From assembly GCA_963665815.1 (NCBI GenBank), contig OY762463.1, forward strand, positions 352,001 to 416,000: a stretch of 64,000 bases of DNA, written 5' to 3'. Made by a program: the position numbers and the translations under genes. Below the pieces are notes generated by a model. It made no database searches. It saw only the letters and a list, made by a program, of their open reading frames with translations, and was not told the origin of the DNA. The stretch comes from Candidatus Cloacimonadales bacterium. Lineage in GTDB: Bacteria; Cloacimonadota; Cloacimonadia; Cloacimonadales; JAIOQZ01. Shown in pieces: positions 40,656 to 59,872 of the stretch. Position 1 is the stretch's first letter, and each line of letters opens with the position of its first letter.

Positions 40656-42065
40656 CTAATTTATAGTATCCTGATCAATTGATTTAGCTGCAATATCAAG
40701 ATATTTCTTAGAAAGGTTATAGTAATTATACATAGAGAATTTCATTGATAGTTTTTCCGAATCACTTTTCTTTAATCTGGATTTCTCCAGAATAATACTA
40801 TAAAGCGTATCAGCAATTTCGGGTGAGTTGTTTCTTAAATGAAAATCAGCCAATATTTGATAACTTCTGAAACACTTGGGTTTAAACCCAAACAAGAGAT
40901 TTCTGTATTTTTCTTTGTCAGATGATTTTCCATTCTCTGCAAGCTGAATATAGGTATTCAGTATCGTAATCTCAGGATTTTCAAAGCTTATGTATGGTTT
41001 ACCTGATTTAAATACTTTTCTGGTCTTGCTCTTGGGTTTCGAATACACATTTTCCGAGACTTGCTCTTTATGTCTGAAGATACTTTCAAATTTCTCATTG
41101 TGCATTATATAATCATCGGGATTGTTGTTCAGGATAAGCTCACATAACTTCAGTGTTTGCTCTGTGAGCCAACGCAGCATTATACTATCTCCTTTTTGGT
41201 CAAAATACATTATTGCCTGACAGAATGTTAGACTTTCATTACCGGAAACATTTTGGGATTTAGATATTTTTTCATAAAGTGAGTTCACAAAGTTTGTCAC
41301 ATGTTTCTTGTAATCACTTGAATCTTTTGAATGTTTTCTGTAAAATCCCTGTAACATAAAGTTTGCATATTGCTCAAACTGTTTTTCCCTGCTGAATTCA
41401 ATGAGTAATTTCTCTTTCATATCCTCATCATACATACTGAGAATACTATTCACATAAACCCTGTTAATACTTTCTCTATTAGTACTTAGTTGCGCAGCAG
41501 ATTCAAGATATGCTCTGGATTCGCTTAGCATATCAATCTTATAGTAAATGGCTGCAAGCTGAATGTAATAGTCAGCACGAATCCCCTGTTCCTTCTTACC
41601 AAATTTCATCAGATTATCCTCAAAGGTCTGAAGCACTTCTATAGCCCTTTTCCTTTTATTCAAATGAACAGCATAAATCTCTGCGAGGTAACCATACGCC
41701 TGAAAATGAAATGATTTACGTTCTATAGCTTTCTCAAAGCATATTATAGCTTCGTCAAAACGTTTCCATTCAATGTAAATTTGTCCTAACCCCTCATATG
41801 CAAAACGGAATTCTGGATCAATTACCTTAGCCTTTAAGTACATTTTTTCAGCATTAGTGTAGTCTTTACTCCGCAAGTATCGGTCACCAAGTTCTACATA
41901 GGGGACAGGTGAAGATGGATCTGATTTGACAAACTCCCTCAGCTCATTAATCTTCATCCTGCGGTATTGCTCGATTTCACTATTGTACAACTGATTGGCT
42001 GACAAAACAGATATTGTACATACAAACACTGCAACAAGCACACTTAGTCTTATCAGACTCCTCAT
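40656..42065 (-). CDS. Secreted TPR-scaffold protein, array member E (469 aa)
   Basis: Signal peptide, 'N.LYN.EI..YR.M', 'SP.PYVELG', 'FRFAYEGLG', 'EKAIERKS.HF'. Confidence 0.8.
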   Translation of the reverse strand: MRSLIRLSVLVAVFVCTISVLSANQLYNSEIEQYRRMKINELREFVKSDPSSPVPYVELGDRYLRSKDYTNAEKMYLKAKVIDPEFRFAYEGLGQIYIEWKRFDEAIICFEKAIERKSFHFQAYGYLAEIYAVHLNKRKRAIEVLQTFEDNLMKFGKKEQGIRADYYIQLAAIYYKIDMLSESRAYLESAAQLSTNRESINRVYVNSILSMYDEDMKEKLLIEFSREKQFEQYANFMLQGFYRKHSKDSSDYKKHVTNFVNSLYEKISKSQNVSGNESLTFCQAIMYFDQKGDSIMLRWLTEQTLKLCELILNNNPDDYIMHNEKFESIFRHKEQVSENVYSKPKSKTRKVFKSGKPYISFENPEITILNTYIQLAENGKSSDKEKYRNLLFGFKPKCFRSYQILADFHLRNNSPEIADTLYSIILEKSRLKKSDSEKLSMKFSMYNYYNLSKKYLDIAAKSIDQDTIN

Positions 42066-42094
42066 TACTCCTCCTTATGCTGAATCGGGAAGGT

Positions 42095-44869: not shown

Positions 44870-45600
44870 ATTATGATTTTCTCCTGTATTGTATGAATCA
44901 CCAATAGTGTTCCATGTTTTTTTATATTTTTGTATATGATATGGAATCTCTTGTTATCTTTTATGTCTGCATCATCAGTCTGATTGAGTAGATTAAGCTC
45001 TTATAGAATAAGATTACTGTCGGGAAATAGTTCCAACGCTTTATCGTACAACTTTCTGGCTTCGATTATATCTCCTGCATACAGGTACGATCTTGCCAGA
45101 AATAAGTAGGCTCTATCGCTTTTATTACAACTGTCTGCTTTGACTTCCGAATCAAAATATGTCCTGAGATTACTCAAAACTATCTGAGTTTCATTTATAT
45201 TATTGTCAATATAATACGTTTGAAGCCTAATCAATTTAAGGAATTCTGATTCCTGTTCTTCTATCAAGATCACTCATAGTGTGTGAAAAAAGTAATTTTT
45301 GTCAATTGAATCAGTTAAAAACTAATCTCCTTTCCCGACTTAATCGGGACTCAGGGGACTTTCAACTCTATCTTTATCAGTAATTTAAGTTGATTGAGTG
45401 GAGTCGAAATCTACGACACAAATTACTATTAACTATAAGAAAACTTACGTTTTACACAATCTGTCAATGGAATCGAATTCCATTATATGGTATCTACTTA
45501 TCTCTGTATTGTAAAGAGTATTAGCCGAAAGATTAATATTTACCAGAAGCAACGATAATACTGCAAATAATGTAAGTCTTATGACTTTCAGTATGTTCAT
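44866..45600 (-). pseudogene. Array member C: N-terminal fragment + inserted element + C-terminal fragment with nonsense codon
   Basis: 45600..45464 reads MNILKVIRLTLFAVLSLLLVNINLSANTLYNTEISRYHIMEFDSI; 45273..44866 matches the C-terminus of members A/B with TAA at 45001-45003; ATGA overlaps at both ends. Confidence 0.85.
45277..45463 (-). mobile_element. MITE-like hairpin element, copy 1 (~187 bp)
   Basis: Homologous to 51754..51930 (reverse orientation); terminal inverted repeats; TCA on both flanks. Confidence 0.8.
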
Positions 45601-47438
45601 CTGACCCATCTCACCCTTCTTTTTATATCAGAAATTGCACTTTTGTCTTTGATGTTGGTGTTACCATTTTCCTTCATATCCTCAAGTTCGGTTTCAGGAA
45701 AACTATAGTGTATTTTATACTTTATTGCTTCCCGATAAATCTTCTCAGCTTTTTCAAAATCATTTATAAATCTGTAGGACCTGGCCATATATAAGTATAA
45801 CTGCACAGGAATGTCATCTTTCTTAATCTTTCTGAAGTACTTATACATCTTTTTAACATTCTTCCGGGCTTTCTTCTCATTACCCGGGTAGAAGCATGTA
45901 TAAAGACGAGTCAATTCATAATGAAGAACTATCTTAGTGTAAAATTCTTTTTCATAGTAATAGGGTTTGATTTTCAGTGTATCCAGATAACCGAAAGCTT
46001 TTGAGGGCAGATTGAGGTAATCCACAATAACCTTTGCGGCATTGGCATAATCCTGGAGTTCGAAATAGTCTTCATATAAATTCATAACTGCTTTAAAGAA
46101 GGCAGGATTTGCCTTTACAGATCTCTTGAGAAGCTCTATAGTATACAGGGGGTATTTATATGAAGTTTTTATAGATAAACCGTAGTAATCTAGTGCAGGA
46201 TTGGTCGAGAAAGAAAGAGCATATTCGAAGAATTCTTTTGCTGTTTTGGTGTCACTGTGTCGTAGGTGAAGATTTGTCATTTCCTTCAAGATAGAAGCTG
46301 TTTTGGGTTTTATCATCAATAGTTTTCGGATATACCAATCTTTTAATTCAGGATTTTTTATTTTTGTTACAGGATTATAAAGCATCCATTCAGCTTGCCC
46401 GGGACTGGTTATTTTCAGTGTACCCGGATCAAGGATATGTATTACATCTGTCGGTTCAGGGAAGATAATGAACTTTGTTGATCGTTTCTCAACTATTACT
46501 GAATCAGGCAAGTTATTCAGATAATTTACTATTCGGTCAATTTCTCGTGATAGTCTTTCCTTAAGATCGAAATCAACGTTATAATCAATACAAAAGGAAT
46601 GAAGCTCACAAATTTCCATCATAGATTTGTTCTCAAGAGGTTGTTTATCCATCTGGTCAATGAAATCCCGAAGAAGGTTTTGGATATCTGCATCAGCTCT
46701 GTATTGATTTCTGTAAGAATAATATAAACCCCTGTACCACTCAAATTTATAGCCATTCTGATTTATTAATTGTTTAAAATTGTCTTCCACCAAATTATAC
46801 TTTCCCATTCTGTTGAGCATATTCGCTTGTTTTTCAAAGTCATCAGGTGTAGATGGTACAAGTCTGGAAGACTTAACCTGCATGGAATCTGCAAGCTCAG
46901 GCTCATAAATTCTTTTATATATGCTTTTTAGTTTGTTGTAATACCAGGTTTTGCTTTGGTAGTCTTTTTTTCCATACTTCAGAAGATTATTTTCAAATGT
47001 CTGCAGCACTTCAATTGCTTTATCTCTGTTGTTCAGGTGTTCCTTATATATTTTAGCCAGATACCTGTACGCCATAAAATGCAGAGACTTTCTTTCAATA
47101 GCCTTTTCAAAGCATGCGATAGCCTCATCATATCGCTTCCATTCAATGTATATCCGCCCAAGTCCTTCATAAGCGAAACGAAAGTCAGGATTAATGGCTT
47201 TTGCCTTAAGAAACACTTGCTCAGCTTCCTTGTATTTCTTCTTACTAAGATATCTGTTTCCTAATTCTACATAAGGGGTTGGTGATGATGGGTTAGTTTT
47301 GACTAAAGACTCGAGTTGTTTCATTTTCATTATGCGTAAACGCTCTATATCTCTATTGTATATTGCATTTGCTGCCAGATTTACCGTAGAAGCAAACATA
47401 AATGAAATCACAAAAACTTTCAGAAATCTATGTACCAT
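45597..47438 (-). CDS. Secreted TPR-scaffold protein, array member B (~613 aa)
   Basis: Conserved N-terminal block; start ATG 47438 (AAGGTGAG RBS) or GTG 47450. Confidence 0.8.
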   Translation of the reverse strand: MVHRFLKVFVISFMFASTVNLAANAIYNRDIERLRIMKMKQLESLVKTNPSSPTPYVELGNRYLSKKKYKEAEQVFLKAKAINPDFRFAYEGLGRIYIEWKRYDEAIACFEKAIERKSLHFMAYRYLAKIYKEHLNNRDKAIEVLQTFENNLLKYGKKDYQSKTWYYNKLKSIYKRIYEPELADSMQVKSSRLVPSTPDDFEKQANMLNRMGKYNLVEDNFKQLINQNGYKFEWYRGLYYSYRNQYRADADIQNLLRDFIDQMDKQPLENKSMMEICELHSFCIDYNVDFDLKERLSREIDRIVNYLNNLPDSVIVEKRSTKFIIFPEPTDVIHILDPGTLKITSPGQAEWMLYNPVTKIKNPELKDWYIRKLLMIKPKTASILKEMTNLHLRHSDTKTAKEFFEYALSFSTNPALDYYGLSIKTSYKYPLYTIELLKRSVKANPAFFKAVMNLYEDYFELQDYANAAKVIVDYLNLPSKAFGYLDTLKIKPYYYEKEFYTKIVLHYELTRLYTCFYPGNEKKARKNVKKMYKYFRKIKKDDIPVQLYLYMARSYRFINDFEKAEKIYREAIKYKIHYSFPETELEDMKENGNTNIKDKSAISDIKRRVRWVR

Positions 47439-47463
47439 TGCTATACTCACCTTTATTCACAAA

Positions 47464-49313
47464 TCAAATATATAACTTCATCTTTTCTCTGCTTCTGGGA
47501 ACATTCCGGTAGTTTTTCAAATTTTTCAAGTCAATACTCTCATATCTCTGCATTTCTCTTTGCTCATAGATCAGGCTTTGATAATCAGGGAATAGTTTCA
47601 ATGCTTTTTTATACAGCTTATTAGCTTTTCTCTTTTTATCAATAATTCTGTATGCTCTTGCCATCAGAAGATAAGATCGTTCGCATTGGTCATTATTACT
47701 CCCCGATCTAAAATACTTTGCCATCTTTTTCACAACTGCCTTTGCATCAGATTCCTTTTCATCCCAGTAATACGCATATAGTCTTACCAGTTTATAGTAT
47801 ATCATTAACTTTGATAAAAACTCTGTTTCTCCTTCATAGCTGTTATTGAATTCCGGTTCGGGGAATTGTCTTGATGAGAATTTTTCAGATGGTAGTTCAA
47901 GGAAACTCAGGCATGTTTTTTCAGCGTCAAGATAGAATTTCCAATCAATGTATGTATCTATTACTGATACGGCAGCTAAGACAGCAGCAGGATCGTGCTC
48001 CAGGGTCTTCTTAAACAAGTACATTTTAGTTTCTTTATCTTCAAGTTTCACTCTTTTAGCCAACCAGTAACTGTCTAATGCAAGATTAGATGAGAATCTC
48101 AGAAAGTATACTGCATGAGCAATTGCTTCCCCCTCAGGACAATTGTGAAGATGAGTTGAGATTAATCTTTTTGCTCCTGCTGTAGTTCTTGGATAATACT
48201 GAGCAAGTCTTTCATAATACCATTCTCTAAAATTCATATCAAGAATCGGTCCTGTAGCACTATGTAAAAGAAGCTCTGCCTGTTCCGGATTTTCAATCTT
48301 AAGGATATATGATTTCATACCACCATGATGTCCCTTTTTACCTTGTGATAGAATTGTCTTATTATTGTATTTTTCAAAACTGGAATCCGGCAGGCTATTT
48401 AGATAATTTTCAATTCTGTCCAGTTCATTAGATATTCTGGTTTGCAAATCATAATTGTATTTATAAGTGTGGCAAAGCATCGACAAATCAACGTAATCAC
48501 GGAAACGTTTTTTATCAAGAGGAAGACTATCCAGTTCCTCAATGAGTTTGTTTAATGTTCTGATTGCTTTGGCTTCATCTTGTGCATATTTTTTGTAAAA
48601 ACTGATTAAACGTTTATAGGTATCAAAGCTGAAGCCTTCTTCCTGAAGAAGGTCCAGAAAAATTTTCTCTACTTTATCAAACTGCTTTGTTTTAATGTAT
48701 AAACCAGTCAGGAGTATTTTATCTCCTCTGTCAGCCGGTTTAATCTTAAATTTCTTTTTCTCTATTTCAATGGCAATTTCAGGCTCATCAATTCTGTTAT
48801 AGATTCTTGAAAGAAGCTCGTAGTTCTGACATTTAGAGTCAATGTCCTGTTTTCCGTACTTCATTAGATGATCTTCAAATGTCTGCAGGATTTCAATAGC
48901 CTTATCTCTTTTATCAAGTTGTAGTGCGTATATCCGGGCAAGCATGGAATATGCATGAAAATGAAGAGACTTTCTCTCGATAGCTTTCTCATAGCATTTT
49001 ATAGCTTCATCGAAACGTTCCCACATAAAATAAATACGCCCCAAACCTCATAAGCGAAACGAAAGTTAACGTCTTTTTCAATTGCTTTCAGGTATGCAGC
49101 TTCAGCTTTCTCCAGTTCCTGTCTATGAACATAACGTTTTCCCAGTTCCACATAAGCAGTTGGTGAGTCTGTACCCTTTGTTGTAAGTTCTTCCAAGTCC
49201 TCAAAAGACATAGGACGATAGATTTTAATTTCACTATTGTATCTTGGATTTGTGTACAATGCTGAACACAATAAAACTGTAACTATCAACCCGAAAAATA
49301 CTCTCTTTCCCAT
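47464..49313 (-). pseudogene. Array member A, split by a 1-bp deletion (~616 aa if repaired)
   Basis: ORFs 48999..49343 and 47464..49044 join at 'FAYE/GLGRIY'; GAG-GT-TTG where GAG-GGT-TTG is needed (~49046). Confidence 0.8.
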
Positions 49314-49449
49314 AGTGTTTGCTCCCTTGTAAGATTGCATCAAGTTTCATGATAATTTCAAGATTATTCTTAAAAAGAAATTACTGATCAGAACTTAAAT
49401 ATATTTGTAATCAATTAAGAGTCAAGGAAATTATATTGCTGCTACCACA

Positions 49450-50352
49450 CTACCCTATCCTGCTGCGGAACCACTCCATTTTGAATTTTAGCTGACTGAA
49501 GAAAAGCCCAAAAATAACGACACCCATTCCAGCTACTTTTTGCAATGTAAATAGTTCATCAAAAAAGAAGTAGGATATTACTCCTGTAAAAACAGGGATA
49601 AGGTTAGAGATTAGTCCTGTCATGTTAATCCCCAGATCACGGATAGAGATTGCCAGAAAGATATATGCTACACCGGAAGCCATCACACCCAGACCTAGTA
49701 GAGAAAACGTCTGATACATTGTGTAACCACTCATTATCGGATGTCCCCAGTGGAATGTCAGAAGCAAAGGCAAAAATAAAAGTGTACTGATTGAATTCTG
49801 GTAAGCTACAAGAGTGATGCTCGAGTACTTCGTAACCAGGTGTTTTGTAACAATGGAATAACCTACTGCTGCAAAGATTGCCAGTGTCATGAATGCGATG
49901 CCTTTGAGGGTTGCTCCTCCTTCAAAATTAGAGGTTACAATCATTAAGATACCGCCAAAGGAGACAATCAGACTGATGATCTCACGCAGGGTTACTTTTT
50001 CCTTAAGAAGAAGCCATGTAAATATAGGATTGAACAGTGGAATAGTTGCAATGAGCACAGCTGCAAGAGAAGCCGATATGAGTCTTAGTCCAAAGCTTTC
50101 ACCTATGAAATATAAGAAGGGTTCGAAGAATGCTGCAAGGAAAATAAAAAATCTGTCTTTCTTCTCAATTCGCATTGATCTCTTAGATATAAGTATAATC
50201 AGGAAAAGAAATACTGTTGATATACTCAGACGTTGGAACAGAATAACAATTGGTGGATTGCTGTCCAAAAGGCTTTTTAATACAACAAAGCTGGAACCCC
50301 AGATCGTCATTGCTATTATAGAAATCAGAAAAGCAAATTTGTTACTCTTCAT
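49450..50352 (-). CDS. DMT/EamA family transporter
   Basis: 'IWG.SF', ~10 TM segments, 'L.E' and 'NLIPV...F..E' EamA repeats. Confidence 0.9.
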   Translation of the reverse strand: MKSNKFAFLISIIAMTIWGSSFVVLKSLLDSNPPIVILFQRLSISTVFLFLIILISKRSMRIEKKDRFFIFLAAFFEPFLYFIGESFGLRLISASLAAVLIATIPLFNPIFTWLLLKEKVTLREIISLIVSFGGILMIVTSNFEGGATLKGIAFMTLAIFAAVGYSIVTKHLVTKYSSITLVAYQNSISTLLFLPLLLTFHWGHPIMSGYTMYQTFSLLGLGVMASGVAYIFLAISIRDLGINMTGLISNLIPVFTGVISYFFFDELFTLQKVAGMGVVIFGLFFSQLKFKMEWFRSRIG

Positions 50353-51683
50353 TTCATTGTTCCCATAATGTATTTTTTTACCAGTTTATGCAGCAGTTCT
50401 TCTCTCACATCAAGTACCTGATAAGATCTTTTATAATTAATAGCAATACTGAATAAGTACTCTTTATCATTGTGAATAATCATACCGGAAAGAGCAGTTT
50501 TCCCGTCAAGATAACCTGTTTTCGCTCTAATCTGCACACCATCCAACTTTTCCTTTTCACTTAATGTGCCTTCACTTCCATGAATTGGTAGAGTTGAGAA
50601 AATGTCCCATTTTAACTCTGGTTTTCTGTAGCAGTATTTCAGTAGTTTTAGAATATCCATTGTACTTAACAGATTACTGTCGTGGTACAAGCCGGATGCA
50701 TTTGCTATCTTTGCATTATGTATGTGCAGGCTGTCTGTAAGCCATGATTCCGGAACATGAGTCATGTTTATCGAATCAGCTGTTTCTGTATGTCTCAGGA
50801 GAGTCTCAGCTATAAAGTTAGAGGAATAGATATTCATCATCTTGACCATGCTTCTCAGGTTCTGTTTGGAAATATGTGTATAGGTTGGATCATCAAAACA
50901 ATCGATACTGTCTGCGTATGAAACGATCTTCAAATCAGCATCAATGTTCAGTTTAGCTGTTAAGGCAGCGTGAAAATATCTGACAGGCTCGTAGACTTTG
51001 CGGTAATAGACCGGATGAAAACTGATGTCCTTTCCTATTGTCCCGGTAAGAATAATCTCCTGCTGAGTTCCTGTATTATTGAACTCTACTTCCAGCCTTT
51101 TTCTTTTTCCATCAATCGTTTTAGCCTTATTATTGATCTTGAAATAACTGATTCCGTCAAAGACTATTATCTCCGGTTTTTCGTTAAGCTCTCCCGGAAT
51201 AACAGTAAACTTGAATGTGTTATAGTTGAATGATAAAGGACAGAACGATGCCTGATAAGATTTCATTGGTTCTTTGTGAATGAGTAGAGAGTCGTATTTA
51301 GCAGGTATATAATAACAGACAGTATCGACTTTTGTCAGATCATGTTGTTTGAGTATATATGCGATCTTCAGCAGGTTATCAGATACTAAAGATGGATCCA
51401 TGCCTGAAACAACACAAAGCTTATTTTCCTGCAGGAAGAACCAGGTCTTGAATTCGGTACCCGGGTCAAGATTCTCAAGCACATAGGCACTGGTAAATAA
51501 TTTAACATTGGAAGCAACATTGAATTTTTTATCAGTGTTATGCTCAACAACCAGAGTATCGCTCGCAATGTCGTAAAGGATGTAGCTGTAATCGTCCGGC
51601 TGAATATCTATTGTATAGGCATTAAGGCAGAAAAGCTGTATTGCTGTGAATGTGAGTAAGAACAGTATTAAGTATTTTCTCAT
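50349..51683 (-). CDS. dacB: D-alanyl-D-alanine carboxypeptidase/endopeptidase (peptidase S13, PBP4)
   Basis: SxxK 'ASNVK', 'DPSL', SxN 'SSN', 'KTG'; signal peptide. Confidence 0.85.
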   Translation of the reverse strand: MRKYLILFLLTFTAIQLFCLNAYTIDIQPDDYSYILYDIASDTLVVEHNTDKKFNVASNVKLFTSAYVLENLDPGTEFKTWFFLQENKLCVVSGMDPSLVSDNLLKIAYILKQHDLTKVDTVCYYIPAKYDSLLIHKEPMKSYQASFCPLSFNYNTFKFTVIPGELNEKPEIIVFDGISYFKINNKAKTIDGKRKRLEVEFNNTGTQQEIILTGTIGKDISFHPVYYRKVYEPVRYFHAALTAKLNIDADLKIVSYADSIDCFDDPTYTHISKQNLRSMVKMMNIYSSNFIAETLLRHTETADSINMTHVPESWLTDSLHIHNAKIANASGLYHDSNLLSTMDILKLLKYCYRKPELKWDIFSTLPIHGSEGTLSEKEKLDGVQIRAKTGYLDGKTALSGMIIHNDKEYLFSIAINYKRSYQVLDVREELLHKLVKKYIMGTMK

Positions 51684-51753
51684 AGTGTGAGTTCCTGATA
51701 AATTAAATCTCTGTTTATTATATGGCAGTTTGTCGAGATCTCGAGTCTGCTCA

Positions 51754-51930
51754 CAGTGTTTAAAAAACGTAAGTTATTTCAAAGTTTATAGTAATTTATG
51801 TCGTAGATTTCGACTCCGCTCAATCAACTTAATATACTGATAAAGAAACATTTGAAAGCTCCCTGAGCGGAGTCGAAGGGATATGCTTTTAACCAAAAGA
51901 ACGACAAAAATTACATATTTATACACACTG
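51754..51930 (+). mobile_element. MITE-like hairpin element, copy 2 (~177 bp)
   Basis: CAGTGTTTAAAA...TTTATACACACTG termini flanked by TCA/TCA; internal perfect 14-bp IR TTCGACTCCGCTCA/TGAGCGGAGTCGAA. Confidence 0.82.
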
Positions 51931-52002
51931 TCAATGCATTCGAAACAACATCAATAATACTGTTTTGTATCAATTAAAAAACAAAGAACCTTATAAAAAA
52001 TC

Positions 52003-52026
52003 AAAGCCCCGAATTAACGGGGCTTT
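52003..52026 (-). terminator. Intrinsic terminator after M3 peptidase
   Basis: AAAGCCCCG-N6-CGGGGCTTT with T-rich tail on the minus strand. Confidence 0.75.
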
Positions 52027-52036
52027 AAAAGTAAGT

Positions 52037-54082
52037 TTATATCAAACCATCCCGTTTCAGGAGAGAATCAACCTCAGGTTCATGCCCTCTGAACGCTTTA
52101 TAGAGTTCCATAGGATGTTTTGAGTCACCTTTTTCAAGGATTTCAGTTCTGAATTTAGCTGCAGTTTCTTTGTTGAAGATTCCTGTGTCTTTAAAATACT
52201 GGAATGCGTCAGCTTCGAGAACTTCAGCCCATTTATATGAATAATAACCTGCAGAGTATCCACCGGCAAAGATATGTGCAAATGCACATGACATGTTAGA
52301 TTCGTCTGAAGCAGGGAAGAGGGATGTACGAGCAAGCAGTTTGTCTTCGTATTCTTTCACATCTTTAACTTCGGAAGTATCTTTATAGTGCCAACCCATA
52401 TCAAGGTCACCAAAAGCAACCTGTCTTATATTCATATAACCTTTATTATATGTTTCTGATGCCTGAACTTTCTTGATCAGTTCTTCAGGGATTCTTTCAC
52501 CTGTTTCGTGATGTACTGCAAACATATCCAGAGCTTCTTTTTCTTTGATCCAGTTTTCCATAATTTGAGATGGAAGTTCAACAAAGTCCCAGAGTACGTT
52601 AGGGCTTGCCACTGCTTTATATTTACAATTGGAAAGCAAACCGTGAAGTGCGTGACCGAACTCATGGAAGAGTGTTCTTAACTCACCATAAGAAAGCAGA
52701 GCAGGTCTGTCGCCTGTAGGAGGTGTAAGGTTAGCAACTATTGCTACGTGAGGACGTTTGATAACGCCGTCGCTTAAACCCTGATCTCTGAATGTAGTCA
52801 TCCAGGCTCCACCGCGTTTGGTAGCTCTTGGGAAAAGGTCGAGATAAAGAATACCAATATCTTTTCCTTCTTCATCTGTTACATCGAAAACTCTTACATC
52901 TTCATGGTAAACAGGGATATCATGTAATTCTTTATATTTAAGCCCGTAAAGCTTTGAGGATACATCAAATACACCTTGAATACAATTATCTGCTTTAAGG
53001 TATGGTCTTAATTCTTCTGAATCAAAATCGAATTTCTTTTTCTTAAGGATTTCGCTGTAATAGCCAAAGTCCCATGTCTCAAGTTCTTCGATTCCGTCCA
53101 TTTCTTTGGCGAGATCTTTAATTTCCTGAAGTTCTTCTTTTGCTTTAGGGTAAGCAACTTCATAAATTCTGTTGAGGAAATTAATTACGTTTTCAGGTGA
53201 TTCTGCCATTCTTTCGGTAATAACATAGTCTGCATGTGTATTGTATCCGAGAAGTTTAGCTCTTTGTGTTCTCAGTTCAACAGTTCTGAGTACAGTTGCC
53301 TGATTGTCAAACTCATCTCTGAATGCTCTTTTTTTGAATGCACTGGAGATTTGCTGTCTTAGCTCACGTTTCTTTGCATAAGTAGAAACAGGCAGCATGC
53401 TTGGGAATTGCAGTGTGAATACCCAGCCGTCTTTTCCTCTCTGCTCAGCAGTATGCTTTGCAGCCATCTTAGCATTTTCAGGGATTCCCTCAAGGTCTGC
53501 TTCGTCTGTGATGTGCATTTCGTATGCATTTGTAGAGTTAAGCAGGTTCTGATTAAAGGTAGGACTTAATCTGGAAAGCTCCTGATCTATTGCTTTGAGC
53601 TTTTCTTTGTCTTCATCTGACAGTAAAGCTCCGTTTCTTGTAAATCCTTTATAGCTGTTTTTTACGATTCTCATTTCTTCTTCGGAAAGATTGAGAGAAT
53701 CTCTTTTGTCATAAACAGCTTTTACTTTTTCAAATAATACAGGATCAGTAGAAATACTGCTACTGAATGCAGCGATTTTGGGGGAGATTTCCTGGGCAAG
53801 CGCTTTGAATTCGTTATCAGATTCAGCACCAAGTAAGTTGAAAAATACTGTTGTAGCTTTGTCAAGAGCCGGGGAGCAGTTGCTTAAAGCAAAGATTGTG
53901 TTTTCGAATGTCGGTTCTTCCGTATTTGCTTTAATTGCTTCAAGATTGTTTTTAGCCTCTTCAAGACCAAAGTCTACTGCAGGGATGTAATGTTCCTTTT
54001 TGAAAAGATTAAAGGGAATTGCTTCGTACTTTCCAACCCTTTCTGCGAACAGAAGTGGATTTTTTTGAATATCACTCATCAT
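52037..54082 (-). CDS. M3 family metallopeptidase (peptidyl-dipeptidase Dcp/oligopeptidase A)
   Basis: 'NPLL', 'KRGGAW', 'FHEFGHALH', 'DFVELPSQ', 'GGYSAGYYSYKWAEV'. Confidence 0.95.
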   Translation of the reverse strand: MMSDIQKNPLLFAERVGKYEAIPFNLFKKEHYIPAVDFGLEEAKNNLEAIKANTEEPTFENTIFALSNCSPALDKATTVFFNLLGAESDNEFKALAQEISPKIAAFSSSISTDPVLFEKVKAVYDKRDSLNLSEEEMRIVKNSYKGFTRNGALLSDEDKEKLKAIDQELSRLSPTFNQNLLNSTNAYEMHITDEADLEGIPENAKMAAKHTAEQRGKDGWVFTLQFPSMLPVSTYAKKRELRQQISSAFKKRAFRDEFDNQATVLRTVELRTQRAKLLGYNTHADYVITERMAESPENVINFLNRIYEVAYPKAKEELQEIKDLAKEMDGIEELETWDFGYYSEILKKKKFDFDSEELRPYLKADNCIQGVFDVSSKLYGLKYKELHDIPVYHEDVRVFDVTDEEGKDIGILYLDLFPRATKRGGAWMTTFRDQGLSDGVIKRPHVAIVANLTPPTGDRPALLSYGELRTLFHEFGHALHGLLSNCKYKAVASPNVLWDFVELPSQIMENWIKEKEALDMFAVHHETGERIPEELIKKVQASETYNKGYMNIRQVAFGDLDMGWHYKDTSEVKDVKEYEDKLLARTSLFPASDESNMSCAFAHIFAGGYSAGYYSYKWAEVLEADAFQYFKDTGIFNKETAAKFRTEILEKGDSKHPMELYKAFRGHEPEVDSLLKRDGLI

Positions 54083-54209
54083 ATTCTCCTTGTTAGATTG
54101 ACTTAAGTGAATCCTCCCTCGATCACTTTAGTTTGAAACCAATAAAAAAAATGGACAAAATTATGCAATCAATTTCTTGTTAATTTAAAATCATTACAGG
54201 ACGGACACA

Positions 54210-54782
54210 ATGAGCAGAAAACATTCTGTTGTTTTAATTTTATTGATAATATCAATTACTCTCGGTGCTGTGGACACATATATACAGGAAGTCTACAGAA
54301 AAATGTACCTTAGCGACTATACGGGAGCGCTGGAACAGGTGGAAAAAGCACTGAAAAAAGAACCCCTTAATATAGAAGTTCTGGAGCTGAAGGCCTATGT
54401 TTTTTTCCAGATGGAAAAGTACGACAAAGCCCTTATCTGGATTGAACAGGCAATAGCTCAGGATTCCACTAAAATCTCTGCTGCCATGCTTAAAGGCTCG
54501 ATATACGATCTGCAGAACAAGAACAAGAAGGCTATAGCTGTCTACGATAAAATCCTTGCTATAAACTTTGACAATGATACAGTCTGGGAAATGAAAGCTG
54601 TTTCTCTGGAAGGCATGGAAAAATACGAGGATGCTATTAAGAGCATTGACAAGGCGATCCAGTTCAATCCGGAAAAACCGGAATACCTGTACACTAAAGC
54701 CCGAATCCTGGAGAAAACCGGTAAAAAAGCCGAAGCCAGAAAACTACGCGAGGAAGCTAAGAAGATTGAGATAAGGATGTAA
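54210..54782 (+). CDS. Secreted TPR-repeat protein
   Basis: Signal peptide and ~4 TPR repeats. Confidence 0.8.
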   Translation: MSRKHSVVLILLIISITLGAVDTYIQEVYRKMYLSDYTGALEQVEKALKKEPLNIEVLELKAYVFFQMEKYDKALIWIEQAIAQDSTKISAAMLKGSIYDLQNKNKKAIAVYDKILAINFDNDTVWEMKAVSLEGMEKYEDAIKSIDKAIQFNPEKPEYLYTKARILEKTGKKAEARKLREEAKKIEIRM

Positions 54783-54805
54783 AAATTGATTTTAGGAGAT
54801 TTTTT

Positions 54806-56218
54806 ATGGGTAGAGTGATACTGATTGTTTTAACACTTGTGATAGCTGTATTATGTTTTGGTGGTTTTGAAATTGACTCGCTATATAATATAAATCCTGA
54901 AGTGAAGAAATTTATTGATGTTAACGGGATTCTCGCAAAGAAAATTGGAATAACAAGCGATAATAGCATTGTGATTTTTGGAGATTACAAAAGCTACAAT
55001 GACTCTCCTTGCTATATTGACAAATATAAATGTATTTCTACTAATAAAAACGGTTGCTTTATTGCAAAATATGATAGTCTAATGATTTTACAATGGGTTA
55101 AAGATATCAATATTACTCAAATAACATCTCTTATAGGCAATACGAGATTCGGTAGTGTCTCAGCTGTCGATCTTGAAATTGATAGTAAAGATAACATTGT
55201 TGTTTCAGGAACTTTCTCTGGTAATCTGAACATTGATAATGAGTTAGTTCTGAAATCTTCGAGATGGCAGACTTCATTGAAATCGTATATCATTAAAATC
55301 TCAAATCATAGTGAAATTTTGTGGTCAAAGAAACTTAAGTACAACTTATCATGCAAGATCAAAAATATATGTCTTGATAGTTCAGATAATATATATATGA
55401 CTGGAAGTTACGTAAAAGAATTTTTTAACTTCTCATTTGGTAAATCGTTTTTAGATAGTTTTTTTAATGATAATTTATTTATTGGCAAAATATCTGCTAA
55501 TGGAAGAAGAAAATGGTTCAGAAAATTTAAATCTGAAAAGCAGAATTCTGGAACAGATTTGTGTTATCTTAATGGTAATTTATATGTAATTGGTTATTAT
55601 GAGAAAGACTTGCAATTTAGCAAAGGGAAAATCTTAAAAATTGATTCTGAAGTTCAACAACATTGTGATGTATTTATTGCTAAGCTTTCAGCTTTAAATG
55701 GTGAAAAGAAAGACATCAGAAAAACAAGTTACAGACTATTCTTCAGTAAATCAAACCCAACCGTGCAAACAAGTTCAGATTTCTACACATTCAATATTGA
55801 CTTGAAAATATTCCCGGATGGAGACAATCTATATGTTACAGGATTCAAAGACATTTACACTTATCTTTTAATTTTGACATCTGATCCTGTTTGCATGATT
55901 TATCCTGAGCAAATACTGACAAAAGTAAGTGAGAAACTTGAGATCAAAGATTATGAACTTCAATTGAAAAAACTTCAAAACTTCTCATATCAGGAAGGAG
56001 ACACTATCTTTACCTCATATCTGTATAGACATATGCATGGAATTATAAAGAATAATGAACTGTATTCTGAGAAATACACAAAAGAGATTACATTTCTTGA
56101 TAGCACAATTTCAGGAAACTACTACTACTTACTAACATCAGAAATTTCGAGTAATACTGGGATGAAGAGTAATTTAGTTCTTAAGAAATACAATCTGAAT
56201 CGACCAAGCAGGATATAA
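54806..56218 (+). CDS. Hypothetical secreted protein, probable beta-propeller repeats
   Basis: Signal peptide; repeats 'DS.DNI...G..', 'FI.K.....W.K'. Confidence 0.6.
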   Translation: MGRVILIVLTLVIAVLCFGGFEIDSLYNINPEVKKFIDVNGILAKKIGITSDNSIVIFGDYKSYNDSPCYIDKYKCISTNKNGCFIAKYDSLMILQWVKDINITQITSLIGNTRFGSVSAVDLEIDSKDNIVVSGTFSGNLNIDNELVLKSSRWQTSLKSYIIKISNHSEILWSKKLKYNLSCKIKNICLDSSDNIYMTGSYVKEFFNFSFGKSFLDSFFNDNLFIGKISANGRRKWFRKFKSEKQNSGTDLCYLNGNLYVIGYYEKDLQFSKGKILKIDSEVQQHCDVFIAKLSALNGEKKDIRKTSYRLFFSKSNPTVQTSSDFYTFNIDLKIFPDGDNLYVTGFKDIYTYLLILTSDPVCMIYPEQILTKVSEKLEIKDYELQLKKLQNFSYQEGDTIFTSYLYRHMHGIIKNNELYSEKYTKEITFLDSTISGNYYYLLTSEISSNTGMKSNLVLKKYNLNRPSRI

Positions 56219-56220
56219 TT

Positions 56221-56964
56221 ATGCATAAAATTGCCCCCCAAAAGCTACTAACCTCCATGGCAGCCACAGAGTACACCATTTTCTATCATCCGGAGTACAC
56301 TGTAGACACAGAATACGGCAGGTTTGAGCATATTCCTCAGTTCCGGGAAAGACACGATGCACACCAGATTTTCAATTGCAACCTTAAAGGTCGAGATATT
56401 AGTGACTTCATCAATTATGCTGAGAAGCTGTTTAAAGAAAATGAATTGGATTACATTAAATTTACAGGGCATTGTCAGGAAACATATCAGAGACTGGTTG
56501 ATGCGGGATATAATCCTGAACGCGAATGGATGATGCTCAAGAAGAATCCCTCTTCCAAATCGGATAATCCTGATGTAACAGTTGAAATCGTAGAGCCTAA
56601 TTCCAAACGGGAGCAAGAATTAGACAAAGATTGTCCTGAACTCAGGAGATGCGATTACTATAAAAACGCTGACTCCCATCTCGAGGGTAAACTGGTGTAT
56701 GCATTCCTTAATAACAAGTTAGCCGGATCAACAGGCTGGTACTTTGCAGGTGATTTTGCCAGATTCCGTTTTGTGCAGACCTTACCTGAATTCCGCAGAC
56801 AGGGCGTTGCTACAACAATGATTCATCATGTACAGAACCATAGAGATATACTAGCTAAAAAGGGCCTGGTAATATTCTGTGACGATGAAAACACAATAAG
56901 GCTATATGAAAGTCTGGGATTCAAAAAGCAGGGATTTGTCTGGTCAGTGAGGAGGGAGATGTGA
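56221..56964 (+). CDS. GNAT-family N-acetyltransferase (C-terminal GNAT)
   Basis: 'V.T.PEFRRQGVAT', 'LYESLGF'. Confidence 0.85.
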   Translation: MHKIAPQKLLTSMAATEYTIFYHPEYTVDTEYGRFEHIPQFRERHDAHQIFNCNLKGRDISDFINYAEKLFKENELDYIKFTGHCQETYQRLVDAGYNPEREWMMLKKNPSSKSDNPDVTVEIVEPNSKREQELDKDCPELRRCDYYKNADSHLEGKLVYAFLNNKLAGSTGWYFAGDFARFRFVQTLPEFRRQGVATTMIHHVQNHRDILAKKGLVIFCDDENTIRLYESLGFKKQGFVWSVRREM

Positions 56965-59348
56965 AAAGAATCAACTATTACGGTATACTAATATTTTTGT
57001 TATACTGTACATATTGTTTTAGCACTGCTGTAAGTATATCTAGATTTCCTAGCAAAGGTCCAACAGAAATGAGTAGATATTCACACGATTTTTTTGATAT
57101 AGAGGGTGCAGAAAAAATTACTGAAATATACAAAGGTACTCTTTGGGACGATCTTGACACATTATCTGTTACTGAATGCGTAAATTTAGAATATTTTGAT
57201 GTATCAGGTACAAGGATAAATTGCATTAATGGTATTGATACTTGTATAAAGTTGGAAAAACTATTTATTGATTACTCAAACATTAAGGATTTTTCATTTA
57301 TTGGAAAGTTGGAGAACCTTACTCATCTTTCTATCGCAAGCAATAATCTATCTGATGTCTCATTTCTGAAAAATCTTAAAAAACTGGAATATCTTGATAT
57401 AAGCGCAAATAATATTTCTGATATCAGTGTTTTAGCTGATTTACACAATCTTAAGTCACTGTATTTTGCAGGAAACAATATTGATGATATATCAATAATT
57501 TCATCTCTGAAACAACTTGAAGTTCTTGATCTTAATTACAATAACATCAGAATGCTTGATTTTCGCTCAAGTTTCCCAAACCTGAAGTATTTTACTGCTG
57601 CTGAGAATGCAATTGATAGTGTTCTTAATTCTGAATCTCTGTTAAATCTGGAAGAAATCAATCTACAGCAGAACAGAATAAATGATATATCATTCCTGAG
57701 AAATTCAACAAAACTTAAGAAAATCTGGTTGGACGGAAATAATGTTTCAAATCTTGAGCCATTAAGCAATTTGGCATCGTTGAAACAATTGTGGATAAAT
57801 GAAAATCCCCTGAATGATTCTGATTTAGCAGCTTTACAGAATGTAGGCTGGATATGGTTCAACAACAATCCGATTATAAATCTTGCAGATGATGATCCAA
57901 TTGAATTTGCTGATTCTAATTTTAAGGAGGCGTTAAAGATATATTTTGACATTGGAGATCGGGATATACTTCTGAGAGACTGTAATAAGCTGGAATCTAT
58001 ACATTTAATAGGTTCATTCACCAGTTTTGATGGGATTCAGTACTTCAGGAATTTAAAAGAGGTATGGATTGAGAAGGAGATTTGTAATGTAAATGATATT
58101 ACTGATATTGGTGTAAGTACATTAGAAGGAATGACAATTGATCCTGATAAAAAGACATGTTTCAAAACCTATAAAACGCTGTATTTTAATGAGATACAGT
58201 CAATGACAAATTGTACTAATCTCAGAATATCTGGGTTCAACATAAATTATATTCCTAAGTTGACTAATTTCTGTAAATTAAATTACTTAGTAGTTGATGA
58301 TGCTAAACTCTACCATCATTTGCATTTGGAATGCCCTGATTTGAAAGGTTTACTGCTTCGCTCCAATTACTATAGGGATTTTGATTTTTCTACTATACCT
58401 GAATCTTTAATTAACCTTTATCTTAGAGGAAACAGCTTCAGAGACATAAGCCTGAAAGAAAATGAAGCCTCAAAACTTAAAAGACTGGAATTAGAGGATT
58501 GTGAAATTCAATCATTCTCTTGCAGTTCAGATATGGAACTAAAAGAACTTAATCTGGGATTGAACTACATTTCAAGTTTTGATTGTAGTTTCGGAAAAGA
58601 TCTAGAAGAACTTCTGTTAAATAATAATCAAATTGATAGTGTTCTGCATTTGAATATGTTGGCGAACCTGAAAGTTATTAATCTTTCAAATAATAACTTC
58701 ACATCTTTAAACGGTTTAAATGATTTACTTTCATTGGAAATCATACATGCTGATAATAACAGAATAAAATCTATGAAGGCTTTATCAAATCTCCCTAAAC
58801 TCAGCACTCTGAACTTGAATTATAATGAAATAGAGAAGCTCCCGAATTTTAAAAAGAAAAACATGCTTGCAATAGAGGTTTTAGAAATAAAATCAAATAA
58901 TCTCTCAAAAATAGATAATTTGAAGTTTCTGAATAAACTAAGAGAATTGGATGTAAGTTCAAATAGTATAAAGTCTTTTAGTATTTTGAAAAAACTGAAG
59001 AATATTGAACAGCTATTTATCTCAAGGAATAAAGTGAAAAATATAAATTTTGCTTCTAAGATGAATAATTTACTTGTATTCACTGCTAATGGTAGTAAAA
59101 TCAAGAAAATTCCTAAATTCAAAGGTTTTAATCATGGAGTTCGTTTGTCTTTACGTAACAATGAGATTGAAGATATTAAAAACCTAAATCTTCTTGATGA
59201 AAGTAGTAGTATAGATTTGACTAATAATAAGATACAAAGTCTAGAAGATTTGGAGAAGAAATTTCGTATCCTATGGATTGGAGGTAATCCGTTAAATGAG
59301 GAATCAATTAGAATTGCGGAAGATAGTAACAAGATCAATTTAGATTAA
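56961..59348 (+). CDS. Secreted leucine-rich repeat protein (internalin-like)
   Basis: Many 22-aa 'L..L.L..N.I.D...L' repeats; internal cap 'I.F.D.NF..AL'; signal peptide. Confidence 0.88.
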   Translation: MKRINYYGILIFLLYCTYCFSTAVSISRFPSKGPTEMSRYSHDFFDIEGAEKITEIYKGTLWDDLDTLSVTECVNLEYFDVSGTRINCINGIDTCIKLEKLFIDYSNIKDFSFIGKLENLTHLSIASNNLSDVSFLKNLKKLEYLDISANNISDISVLADLHNLKSLYFAGNNIDDISIISSLKQLEVLDLNYNNIRMLDFRSSFPNLKYFTAAENAIDSVLNSESLLNLEEINLQQNRINDISFLRNSTKLKKIWLDGNNVSNLEPLSNLASLKQLWINENPLNDSDLAALQNVGWIWFNNNPIINLADDDPIEFADSNFKEALKIYFDIGDRDILLRDCNKLESIHLIGSFTSFDGIQYFRNLKEVWIEKEICNVNDITDIGVSTLEGMTIDPDKKTCFKTYKTLYFNEIQSMTNCTNLRISGFNINYIPKLTNFCKLNYLVVDDAKLYHHLHLECPDLKGLLLRSNYYRDFDFSTIPESLINLYLRGNSFRDISLKENEASKLKRLELEDCEIQSFSCSSDMELKELNLGLNYISSFDCSFGKDLEELLLNNNQIDSVLHLNMLANLKVINLSNNNFTSLNGLNDLLSLEIIHADNNRIKSMKALSNLPKLSTLNLNYNEIEKLPNFKKKNMLAIEVLEIKSNNLSKIDNLKFLNKLRELDVSSNSIKSFSILKKLKNIEQLFISRNKVKNINFASKMNNLLVFTANGSKIKKIPKFKGFNHGVRLSLRNNEIEDIKNLNLLDESSSIDLTNNKIQSLEDLEKKFRILWIGGNPLNEESIRIAEDSNKINLD

Positions 59349-59534
59349 CAATAATCCTCAAAAATAGTTTGATACAATGTTTTTTTATGGAAAGTGTGAA
59401 GCAATATTTGATATTATTAAAAGGTGTTGGAATATATATGTATGGATTTAGTGCTCAGGTTTTTCTCGTAACTATACTATTAATATCATGTCATTTAATC
59501 AGTATTGATAATCTTTAATATACAAGCTCTCTGA

Positions 59535-59722
59535 CAGATCGTGTAAAAACGTGTTTTTCATTTTAATTTATTAACATATTTTGTCGCAGATTTTCCCGAA
59601 TTATCGGGACTCAATCAACTTAACCTGCTGAAAAAAATATAAATATAAGCTCCCTGAGCGGAGTCCAAGGGGATTAGTTTTAAGGGAATGAAACGACAAA
59701 AATTACGTTTATGTACAAACTT
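59535..59722 (+). mobile_element. MITE-like hairpin element, copy 3 (more degenerate, right end approximate)
   Basis: TGA|CAGATCGTGTAAAA start; shares TGTCG.AGATT, CTCAATCAACTTAA, AAGCTCCCTGAGCGGAGTC, ACGACAAAAATTAC with copy 2. Confidence 0.75.
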
Positions 59723-59872
59723 TATGCAGAGTCGAAAACATAGTAAGATTAGTTATCCAGATTTTCAGAAATCTTCTTTAAATAGTTAGTATGTCAGTGA
59801 GTTCAATATAAAAACTATTATAGAGAACTCAAGTCATTCTGATAATTCGTAACAACTCAAATTCTTAAATCT

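Follow-up and report, generated by a model that had tools for sequence, protein, structure and literature searches.

The stretch of DNA analysed here (the window; 64,000 nucleotides (nt) of a Candidatus Cloacimonadales bacterium, contig OY762463.1, corresponding to G000:C1:352001-416000 of the source genome) contains three copies of a nested palindromic repeat of about 210 nt. All three are intergenic and lie just downstream of at least one gene in the map of open reading frames (ORFs), among ordinary genes for tetratricopeptide-repeat (TPR) proteins, peptidases, acetyltransferases and a leucine-rich-repeat (LRR) protein. Alignment of the copies resolves the element into a degenerate outer 14-mer, module A, a left arm, a 41-nt centre, a right arm, module A' and a second outer 14-mer on the opposite strand, with the two arms forming the inner pair of the palindrome. 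Module A is about 55 nt long and begins CAG(A/T)(C/G)TGTGTAAAAACG; throughout the family the outer ends consist of the 14-mer, or a CTCA/CTGA remnant, followed by this same start. The two sides of the centre are distinct (left ATCAACTTAA..., right ...AAGCTCCC).

The arms occur in two forms, which we call S (short; TTCGACTCCGCTCA, 14 nt) and A (long; TT-TCCCGA-N4/5-TCGGGA-CTCA). Both share a single architecture of an outer stem, an internal loop of TT and CTCA, and an inner stem of either 2 bp (CG...CG) or 6 bp. Each arm is thus a tiny hairpin unit resembling repetitive extragenic palindromic (REP) sequences, in which a short stem that varies among subfamilies surrounds a conserved core. Copy 2 carries S in both arms as perfect reverse complements. 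Copy 3 carries A on its left arm with the loop ATTA, and copy 1, which lies on the minus strand, carries A on the other arm with the loop CTTAA; in both copies the partner arm is S with one change (Table 1).

These similarities are not expected by chance. The window contains two TCCCGA-N3-6-TCGGGA hairpins where 0.01 are expected (two or more in 0/100 shuffles) and four matches to the 14-mer with at most two mismatches where 0.13 are expected (four or more in 0/100 shuffles). By repeat search and alignment the copies are homologous to one another over about 130-210 nt, including an inverted repeat (I1) of 127 nt with 81% complementarity and a direct repeat (D4) of 83 nt at 75%. A preliminary description of this DNA had reported the copies with their positions, both arm forms and the edges at TT and CTCA, all of which proved exact and far above chance; the identical TT...CTCA frame that it claimed for both forms is constant genome-wide and constitutes one fixed slot.

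Table 1. Parts of the three repeat copies, in positions of the window.
Feature	Position	Strand	Basis and remarks
Copy 1, degenerate outer end	45264..45276	-	ends CTCA (45273-45276); sequence read
Copy 1, outer module A' (right-arm side)	45277..45330	-	aligns with copies 2 and 3; ~90% conserved in G001 orthologue L011
Copy 1, right arm, long form A, 5-nt loop	45331..45353	+	TT TCCCGA CTTAA TCGGGA CTCA; short form in G001 orthologue
Copy 1, centre, 41 nt	45354..45394	-	listed as G000 397333; 34/41 positions as in G001 orthologue (0.83)
Copy 1, left arm, S with one change	45395..45408	-	TTCGACTCCACTCA on minus strand; decayed long form in G001 orthologue
Copy 1, outer module A (left-arm side)	45409..45463	-	sequence read, alignment, G001 comparison
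Copy 1, degenerate outer 14-mer	45464..45477	-	TCAATGGAATCGAA on plus strand; within inverted repeat I1
Copy 2, degenerate outer 14-mer	51740..51753	+	CTCGAGTCTGCTCA; sequence read, alignment
Copy 2, outer module A	51754..51808	+	sequence read, alignment
Copy 2, left arm, S perfect	51809..51822	+	TTCGACTCCGCTCA; sequence read, mismatch search
Copy 2, centre, 41 nt	51823..51863	+	listed as G000 403809
Copy 2, right arm, S perfect	51864..51877	-	perfect reverse complement of left arm; sequence read, mismatch search
Copy 2, outer module A'	51878..51930	+	listed as 403930; sequence read, alignment
Copy 2, degenerate outer 14-mer	51931..51944	-	TCAATGCATTCGAA on plus strand
Copy 3, outer module A	59535..59591	+	begins CAGATCGTGTAAAAACG; listed as 411535; sequence read
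Copy 3, left arm, long form A, 4-nt loop	59592..59613	+	TT TCCCGA ATTA TCGGGA CTCA; G001 orthologue L018 in same state
Copy 3, centre, 41 nt	59614..59654	+	listed as G000 411594
Copy 3, right arm, S with one change	59655..59668	-	TTGGACTCCGCTCA on minus strand
Copy 3, outer module A'	59669..59722	+	sequence read, direct repeat D6, alignment
Copy 3, degenerate outer 14-mer	59723..59736	-	TATGCAGAGTCGAA on plus strand

An nhmmer profile built from the three copies gave 45 matches in the source genome (G000; 3.96 Mb, single contig, 36% GC), which we read as 34 distinct loci. The 28 complete inverted doublets among them show all four arm combinations (left/right: A/S 9, S/S 8, A/A 6 and S/A 5). 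From a genome of the same genus (G001) we fetched 31 loci, whose flanks were mapped on the source genome; their 21 complete doublets are also of all four kinds (A/A 11, A/S 6, S/S 2 and S/A 2). The exact pattern TCCCGA-N4/5-TCGGGA-CTCA and the exact 14-mer each occur 23 times in the source genome, and TT stands before TCCCGA in the family copies listed. In the two genomes together the loop of A is 4 nt long in 31/32 left arms and 5 nt long in 23/24 right arms, and both exceptions come from a single element, at G000 2306478-2306560, in which CTCA and TGAG bound an inverted centre. Most pairs of copies are 75-88% alike over flanks and centre, a divergence from which we judge the family to be old.

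We compared arm state among elements with related centres. When each of 49 elements is paired with its nearest neighbour by centre (mean identity 88%), the two share their left-arm form in 53% of cases (p = 0.58; 53% under the null) and their right-arm form in 57% (p = 0.22; 49% under the null). Arm state does not, then, track the lineage of the element's centre, as it would if a single ancestral lineage accounted for the arm types, the explanation against which the preliminary description had set its own. The two arms of an element are also combined at about chance (matched pairs in 27/49 versus ~24 expected from the margins by our own arithmetic). Arm state is weakly linked to the outer module beside it (G000, p = 0.003 and 0.001; G001, p = 0.003 and 0.039) and shows no association with the centre (p = 0.08-0.37). 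The identity matrices of left module, centre and right module correlate weakly (r = 0.03-0.35), so the family looks reassorted rather than copied as whole units, and in one pair (2858150 vs L033) the centre has been replaced between modules that are otherwise 92-97% alike. The main seam of this reassortment looks to be the arm-to-centre junction at CTCA. Tandem arrays of module A, arm and centre at a spacing of ~120 nt are present at G000:C1:266680-267030, 2957588-2957960 and 3201160-3201520, and units adjoining within these arrays differ in arm form and module subtype.

A DNA search of 41 genomes found the composite repeat in three, namely G000, G001 and, as one marginal match of 27 nt, G003; it was absent from the other relatives searched. 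Five G001 copies lie opposite empty sites in the source genome (L007, L026, L027, L032 and L044). Direct repeats of 6 nt (L026) and 5 nt (L044) at two of the filled sites are possibly due to chance, and extra sequence blurs the ends there. Element orientation is opposite between the two species at L029 and L042, and the copy-2 locus (L012) and L036 are rearranged. At the seven colinear loci, either both arm slots differ (five loci: copy 1/L011, L028, L035, L038 and L041) or neither does (two loci: copy 3/L018 and G000 2009884/L030), and none differs in one slot only. By our reading, the differing orthologous slots have A in G001 and S in G000 in eight cases and the reverse in two.

Several of these seeming swaps are gains or losses of a whole unit of hairpin and module. 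The left-slot difference at L028, L035 and L041 is an entire unit of long hairpin plus module A in G001, lying between TGAG and TGAG, and the right-slot difference at L038 is a deletion between two centres. Of two paralogues within the source genome (2009815-2010023 and 2525914-2526190), one has the right-arm long hairpin where the other carries an entire module and a further S; their left arms also differ, S in one and A in the other. In four cases the core alone is cleanly exchanged and the sequence on either side is conserved, namely in the left and right arms of copy 1, the right arm at G000 2321059 and the left arm at G000 3274848. Copy 1 is the clearest case of a true in-place core swap. 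In G000 its left arm is S and its right arm A; in G001 the left arm is a decayed A and the right arm a perfect S; the flanks are 91-92% identical. Differences of state at single loci in related genomes, which the preliminary description had proposed to look for, are thus present as orthologous arms that differ within conserved flanks. Contigs from three runs of the source sample match the window across all three copies and show no alternative arm, although contigs drop rare variants and such a match therefore says nothing on low-level polymorphism. At copies 1 and 2, a relative in a sediment run (X4) has joints similar to those of G001.

Both cores are found far beyond this genus. In GTDB genomes, at least 127 stretches contain the 20-mer of the right S arm (CCTTCGACTCCGCTCAGGGA), where ~1 would be expected (2 x 596 Gb / 4^20, our own arithmetic); their records are labelled Bacteroidota, Spirochaetes, Gammaproteobacteria, Desulfuromonadales, Cyanobacteria, Aquificaceae, Patescibacteria, Margulisbacteria and others. 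Viral contigs with this 20-mer show 14 loci of the same hairpin type. For the long form, TTTCCCGA-N4/5-TCGGGACTCA was recovered from at least 120 metagenome contigs, with GC contents of 29-63%. In both sets the core sits between short, variable, complementary flanks: at least three directly abutting flank pairs are found in 38/74 distinct A instances as against 2/74 with shuffled partners, and the S instances have 39 distinct stems, a set biased by a search pattern that fixes CC...GGGA. S and A are neighbours in other taxa as well (L046, L216, L227, L230, L237, L247, L257, L264 and L270), and there are intermediates between them (TTCGAC + 6-bp hairpin + CTCA at L046; TTCGA + hairpin + CTCA at L250). 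Of the 41 relatives, eight contain exact S, in as many as 64 copies, and exact A is confined to G000 and G001; a reversed-pattern control has 0 matches in all 41. In the sister genus the unit, TCC-S-GGA-TGACA, belongs to a different repeat, in which perfect palindromic stems of 10-13 bp carry it at their tip. Text searches of the literature for motif strings and peptide read-throughs gave no relevant match for either core.

Some arrangements of S elsewhere deserve mention. At G007:C4:89327-89428 (L332), three direct tandem S units 44 nt apart are followed by an inverted variant unit. A palindromic element of ~110 nt with a central pair of S and reversed S recurs in a metagenome-assembled genome (MAG) of Leucothrix (L048, L054, L055, L058, L059, L078, L080, L086 and L092), and nearly the same element is present in an Aquificaceae MAG (L116) labelled as a very distant phylum, which reflects either horizontal spread or contamination of one bin. 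In 6/80 loci (L049, L056, L066, L084, L102 and L117) an open frame spans the whole 820 nt including the S unit, and in five of these six, housekeeping Pfam domains (Mur ligase, ABC transporter, RNB/S1, GATase) flank it or lie nearby; these units look like in-frame copies within genes.

We then considered which enzymes accompany the two forms. The preliminary description had suggested an HUH nuclease of the REP-associated tyrosine transposase (RAYT) type, and this candidate fares poorly. S or A was found within 1.5 kb of 0/33 Y1 transposase loci (two in G000, 19 in other phyla and 12 in relatives), a count that includes 0/19 for S in five S-rich genomes of other phyla and 0/12 for either form in relatives. 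Y1 genes occur in 29/41 relatives regardless of S, and G005 has 39 copies of S and no Y1 match. A conserved GTAG is also absent: left-arm flanks are mostly GTCGCAGAT, with GTAG in a few (e.g. 397408, 403809 and 980531), and right-arm flanks have none. The two RAYT-like Y1 genes of the source genome (G000:C1:2133821-2134156, L021, and 3509551-3509868, L022) are each flanked by another hairpin of their own and are separate REP-type systems.

Small GIY-YIG genes, which the preliminary description had also proposed to examine, gave a divided result, positive for S in the sister genus and other phyla and negative both in the source genome and for A. In five relatives, S doublets bracket 3/8 small GIY-YIG ORFs as against 0/6 large ones; the three are in G003 (L354, G003:C1:2784155-2787370, intact, 105 amino acids (aa)), G005 (L363, broken) and G007 (L367, a fragment). 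Their closest homologues in three genomes of other phyla (L368, L369 and L370) are all flanked by S or near variants, and five weaker homologues are not. The same gene ends at the S unit in 2/80 randomly matched S loci (L064 and L077); tblastn found the S-linked gene beside 0/80 A loci and 0/14 viral S loci. Records in which S brackets such a gene are labelled Moraxellaceae, Pseudomonadota, Bacteroidales, Margulisbacteria and Lewinella, in addition to the Cloacimonadota relatives. The nearest solved chains to the S-linked nuclease are the UPF0213 proteins 1ZG2 and 1YWL; among Pfam models it matches PF01541 only, and no NCBIfam model matches. A literature search on YhbQ, UPF0213 or GIY-YIG together with palindromic repeats gave nothing relevant.

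The source genome has no homologue of the S-linked gene (tblastn, E <= 0.01). Three of its ORFs match the Pfam GIY-YIG model, none of them near the listed family copies: one of 609 aa, judged to be UvrC on size alone; one of 349 aa; and one of 95 aa, a weak match that contains a stop codon. G001 has only a 34% identical relative, a small GIY-YIG gene (L356, G001:C13:1239772-1242990) bracketed by direct copies of a different hairpin; neither S nor A brackets a small GIY-YIG gene there. The stem of that hairpin, TCCCGAG/CTCGGGA, is the A stem plus one pair, and a single copy of it without a gene is present at G000:C1:2530569-2530589. The 23S-rRNA-IVS protein family is not represented in the source genome.

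The composite repeat is an old, genus-restricted, intergenic element that is modular like a bacterial interspersed mosaic element (BIME) or a miniature inverted-repeat transposable element (MITE), and its S/A dimorphism is ancient, spans phyla and was not created in this window. The best explanation, to which we assign a probability of about one half, is that this old loop dimorphism has been reshuffled among the copies by flank-guided recombination. S and A would act as alleles of each arm slot and would be reassorted among ~35 copies by ectopic recombination, gene conversion or template switching, with exchange concentrated at hairpin junctions and above all at CTCA; all four arm combinations and the differences in state between orthologous loci would be the outcome. 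Guidance by the flanks is supported by the arm-specific loop lengths of A, the linkage of arm state to the outer module, the gains and losses of whole units and the inverted centre, and we infer that recombination among copies, rather than a dedicated enzyme, moves the forms. The different lengths of the left and right A loops also lead us to reject two simpler routes, copying from arm to arm (palindrome correction) and a double inversion swapping both arms. The two independent conversions that the preliminary description saw in the window are not needed, since both forms are old and cross-phylum. Of the site-specific, templated exchange that it proposed, the fixed slot, the lack of lineage tracking and the orthologous differences stand, and the HUH/RAYT enzyme and fresh conversions in the window do not.

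Several observations weigh against flank-guided recombination as the full account. The four core-limited orthologous swaps would need conversion tracts that end in conserved stretches of ~15 nt on each side, and the lack of linkage between arm state and the adjacent centre calls for numerous events or else for a hot spot of breakpoints at CTCA, and for such a hot spot an enzyme would be an equally good explanation. That both slots differ in 5/7 colinear loci and one slot in none is odd for independent arm-wise events, with the caveat that three of those left slots and one right slot are the unit gains or losses and the deletion described above. The restriction of A to this genus among the 41 relatives, eight of which have S, and its greater frequency in G001 make a directional spread of A possible. 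The core-limited swaps, the CTCA seam and the limitation of A to the genus together keep a structure- or enzyme-directed process alive. Such a process, in essence that of the preliminary description with its enzyme reassigned, might involve a dedicated nuclease or recombinase that acts on single-stranded hairpins, cuts at the unit and drives site-specific, templated exchange of cores; the candidates are a small GIY-YIG nuclease of the type whose gene is bracketed by S units and a Y1 transposase acting in trans. It would fit the genome-wide uniformity of the TT...CTCA frame, the bounding of the inverted centre and of unit gains and losses by CTCA/TGAG, and the confinement of four swaps to the core, and the bracketing of small GIY-YIG genes by S in relatives and other phyla supplies a possible enzyme. 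Ssn-family GIY-YIG nucleases cut single-stranded DNA beside cognate hairpin repeats (PMC11893778), and strand exchange by TnpA-REP from one REP site to another has been shown in vitro (PMC3333891). Nevertheless, the source genome lacks the S-linked gene, its own GIY-YIG ORFs are not near listed copies, the relative in G001 is divergent and flanked by a different hairpin, and the Y1 genes are consistently without S or A. The arm-specific 4-nt and 5-nt forms of A speak against a cassette that is blind to its flanks, the arms lack the GTCA-type tag found beside the unit elsewhere, and Ssn is reported, in the sections consulted, to cut, not to exchange or transpose (PMC11893778). We regard an enzyme of this kind as unlikely to be the main agent.

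Recombination among copies must also be weighed against insertion and against selection on RNA. S and A might be two separate tiny mobile hairpins that use the same kind of target, for example the tip of a palindrome, with loss of one followed by fresh insertion of the other. The conserved cores between variable complementary flanks (bearing in mind the search bias of the S stem set), the position of the sister-genus unit at the tip of palindromic stems, the S units within long open frames and the five G001 copies opposite empty sites are all in keeping with insertion. Against it, no core-less arm was found in normal flanks, the only core-less junctions being joins of module to centre at TCA, and the loop lengths would demand a pair of A elements that each favour a different arm. 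Separate insertion is rather improbable. It is very improbable that the element is a structured RNA, or carries RNA hairpin modules, with short and long inner stems as interchangeable solutions kept by selection. The common architecture of S and A, with inner loops of 4-5 nt, would suit such a role, as would the position of all three window copies just downstream of genes and the T:G and compensatory C:G pairs at the first pair of the long stem (e.g. TCCCGA/TCGGGG and CCCCGA/TCGGGG). Against it, the arms show the unit on opposite strands, so that one transcript cannot carry both in sense, and matched and mismatched arm pairs occur at chance. Units lie inside coding regions in other taxa, and Ssn-related hairpins are described as acting as single-stranded DNA, not RNA (PMC11893778). 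Rfam gave no match in the window at the gathering score and, on six family loci at E <= 1, only sub-threshold microRNA-type matches of the kind expected of any hairpin. The wobble asymmetry that bears on RNA versus DNA amounts to 6 C:A and 0 G:T, too few cases. Two specific RNAs were rejected. The 14-mer resembles TTCGA(A/G)TCCTCTCA in the T-loop of two real tRNA genes, but its flanks cannot form a T-arm and ARAGORN found no tRNA in the window; and the unit does not fit the hammerhead ribozyme core, with which we compared it by eye.

Among known systems, a close precedent is the REP/BIME family of enterobacteria with its RAYT (TnpA-REP) transposase, including REPINs (PMC3333891, PMC3116915, PMC3337134), which likewise consists of intergenic hairpin units in inverted pairs with a linker; the present family comprises 34 loci and 28 inverted doublets with a 41-nt centre, and its window copies lie between ORFs. 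E. coli REPs of types y, z1 and z2 are joined in BIME-1, BIME-2 and chimeric mosaics. In such elements tandem amplification makes copy number variable among strains, and recombination at unit or linker sites has been proposed as the source of the variability (PMC3333891); these features have parallels here. Unlike REP/BIME, the window family has no conserved GTAG and no RAYT gene flanked by its units (0/33), its core or 'loop' is conserved while the stem varies, and its units are embedded in a larger palindrome of ~210 nt with extra modules. In the GTAG and CGTC superfamilies (PMC3733652), short loops coexist with long self-complementary ones of up to 6-7 paired bases, as in the GTAG-3 families; dimers of unequal loop length, insertion within small palindromes and intragenic copies all have parallels here, and CGTC/TGTC-tagged families without a dedicated transposase are described (Di Nocera, De Gregorio and Rocco 2013, PMC3733652). 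The core itself is not found in the passages of that paper available to us (string GAGCG 0 times). The arms here are without a CGTC/TGTC tag; behind related units of the sister genus and of metagenomes stands TGAC(A), or TGTCA on the other strand.

Chenal et al. 2025 report that the NTS/dRS3 repeats, the Neisseria member of this class, and related motifs flank small GIY-YIG Ssn nucleases, which cut NTS or related motifs as single strands (PMC11893778). In both systems a small single-domain GIY-YIG gene is bracketed on both sides by a scattered hairpin repeat (here S, outside G000), the A stem TTCCCGA...TCGGGA resembles the printed NTS stem (ATTCCCGCG...), and NTS-type hairpins are described as acting as single-stranded DNA. 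In contrast, the S-linked nuclease is nearest to UPF0213 proteins, the source genome is without the gene, and what that report demonstrates is that the enzyme cuts and that transformation is affected, with no exchange of cores (PMC11893778). The published degenerate SRM pattern, which as a control finds two instances of the NTS consensus, matches eight sites in the source genome, at chance level (shuffles 1-4 per Mb), and 0 of the 28 doublets. As this motif misses the arms, the units are at best a divergent relative of the CGTC/TGTC-tagged or Ssn-linked class.

The family resembles MITEs in its size of ~200 nt, long inverted ends, lack of coding capacity and presence or absence between species at five loci. 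It differs in having no clear target duplication (5-6-nt direct repeats at two filled sites, possibly chance), no full-length parent with matching ends that we could find, and modules that reassort rather than being copied whole. For comparison with IS200/IS605 elements, units of module A, long hairpin and CTCA follow CTCA at three loci, inspection by eye showed no convincing 5' hairpin, and such ends are absent from the Y1 genes examined.

Taken alone, the window is of modest interest, its 'swap' being the outward sign of a REP/BIME-like repeat with two loop forms that is modular and recombines, and for which the E. coli REP types are a precedent. Of wider significance are the cores, identical in every letter in many phyla and metagenomes despite their varying stems, and the repeated bracketing of a small GIY-YIG gene by S, which provides a testable enzyme partner for this class of repeat, parallel to Ssn and missed by the published motif. 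The replacement of orthologous cores within conserved flanks makes the two species a natural system for the in-place rewriting of hairpin repeats. A bolder and quite improbable idea is that S is the recognition hairpin of a UPF0213-like branch of small GIY-YIG nucleases and A a cleavage-resistant variant that spreads by templated repair. If so, S and its GIY-YIG gene would be a counterpart to the Ssn-SRM and RAYT-REP pairs, and A would have replaced S, like a homing allele, as cuts made at S were repaired with other copies as template. A resistant allele would explain why A sits in the exact slot of S, why it is restricted to this genus among the 41 relatives, why it is commoner in G001 (8 vs 2 slots) and why unit junctions are hot spots of rearrangement.

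Two neighbouring regions of the window showed features of their own. Copy 1 lies within a minus-strand run of paralogous TPR-repeat genes (40656-49343), in which four to five conserved blocks recur at a spacing of 1.9-2.8 kb. All three source-sample runs have an extra T behind position 49047 at full depth, so the overlapping minus-strand TPR ORFs 47464-49044 and 48999-49343 are probably a single gene split by a one-base assembly error. No relatives of the neighbouring S13 peptidase were confirmed among metagenome contigs. Beside copy 3, the LRR-protein gene (56961-59348) is 98% identical to G001:C8:808276-810619, which is a different place in that genome, whereas its neighbours in the window match G001 at only 78-94%; this difference in identity suggests a recent transfer or relocation of the gene to its position next to copy 3.

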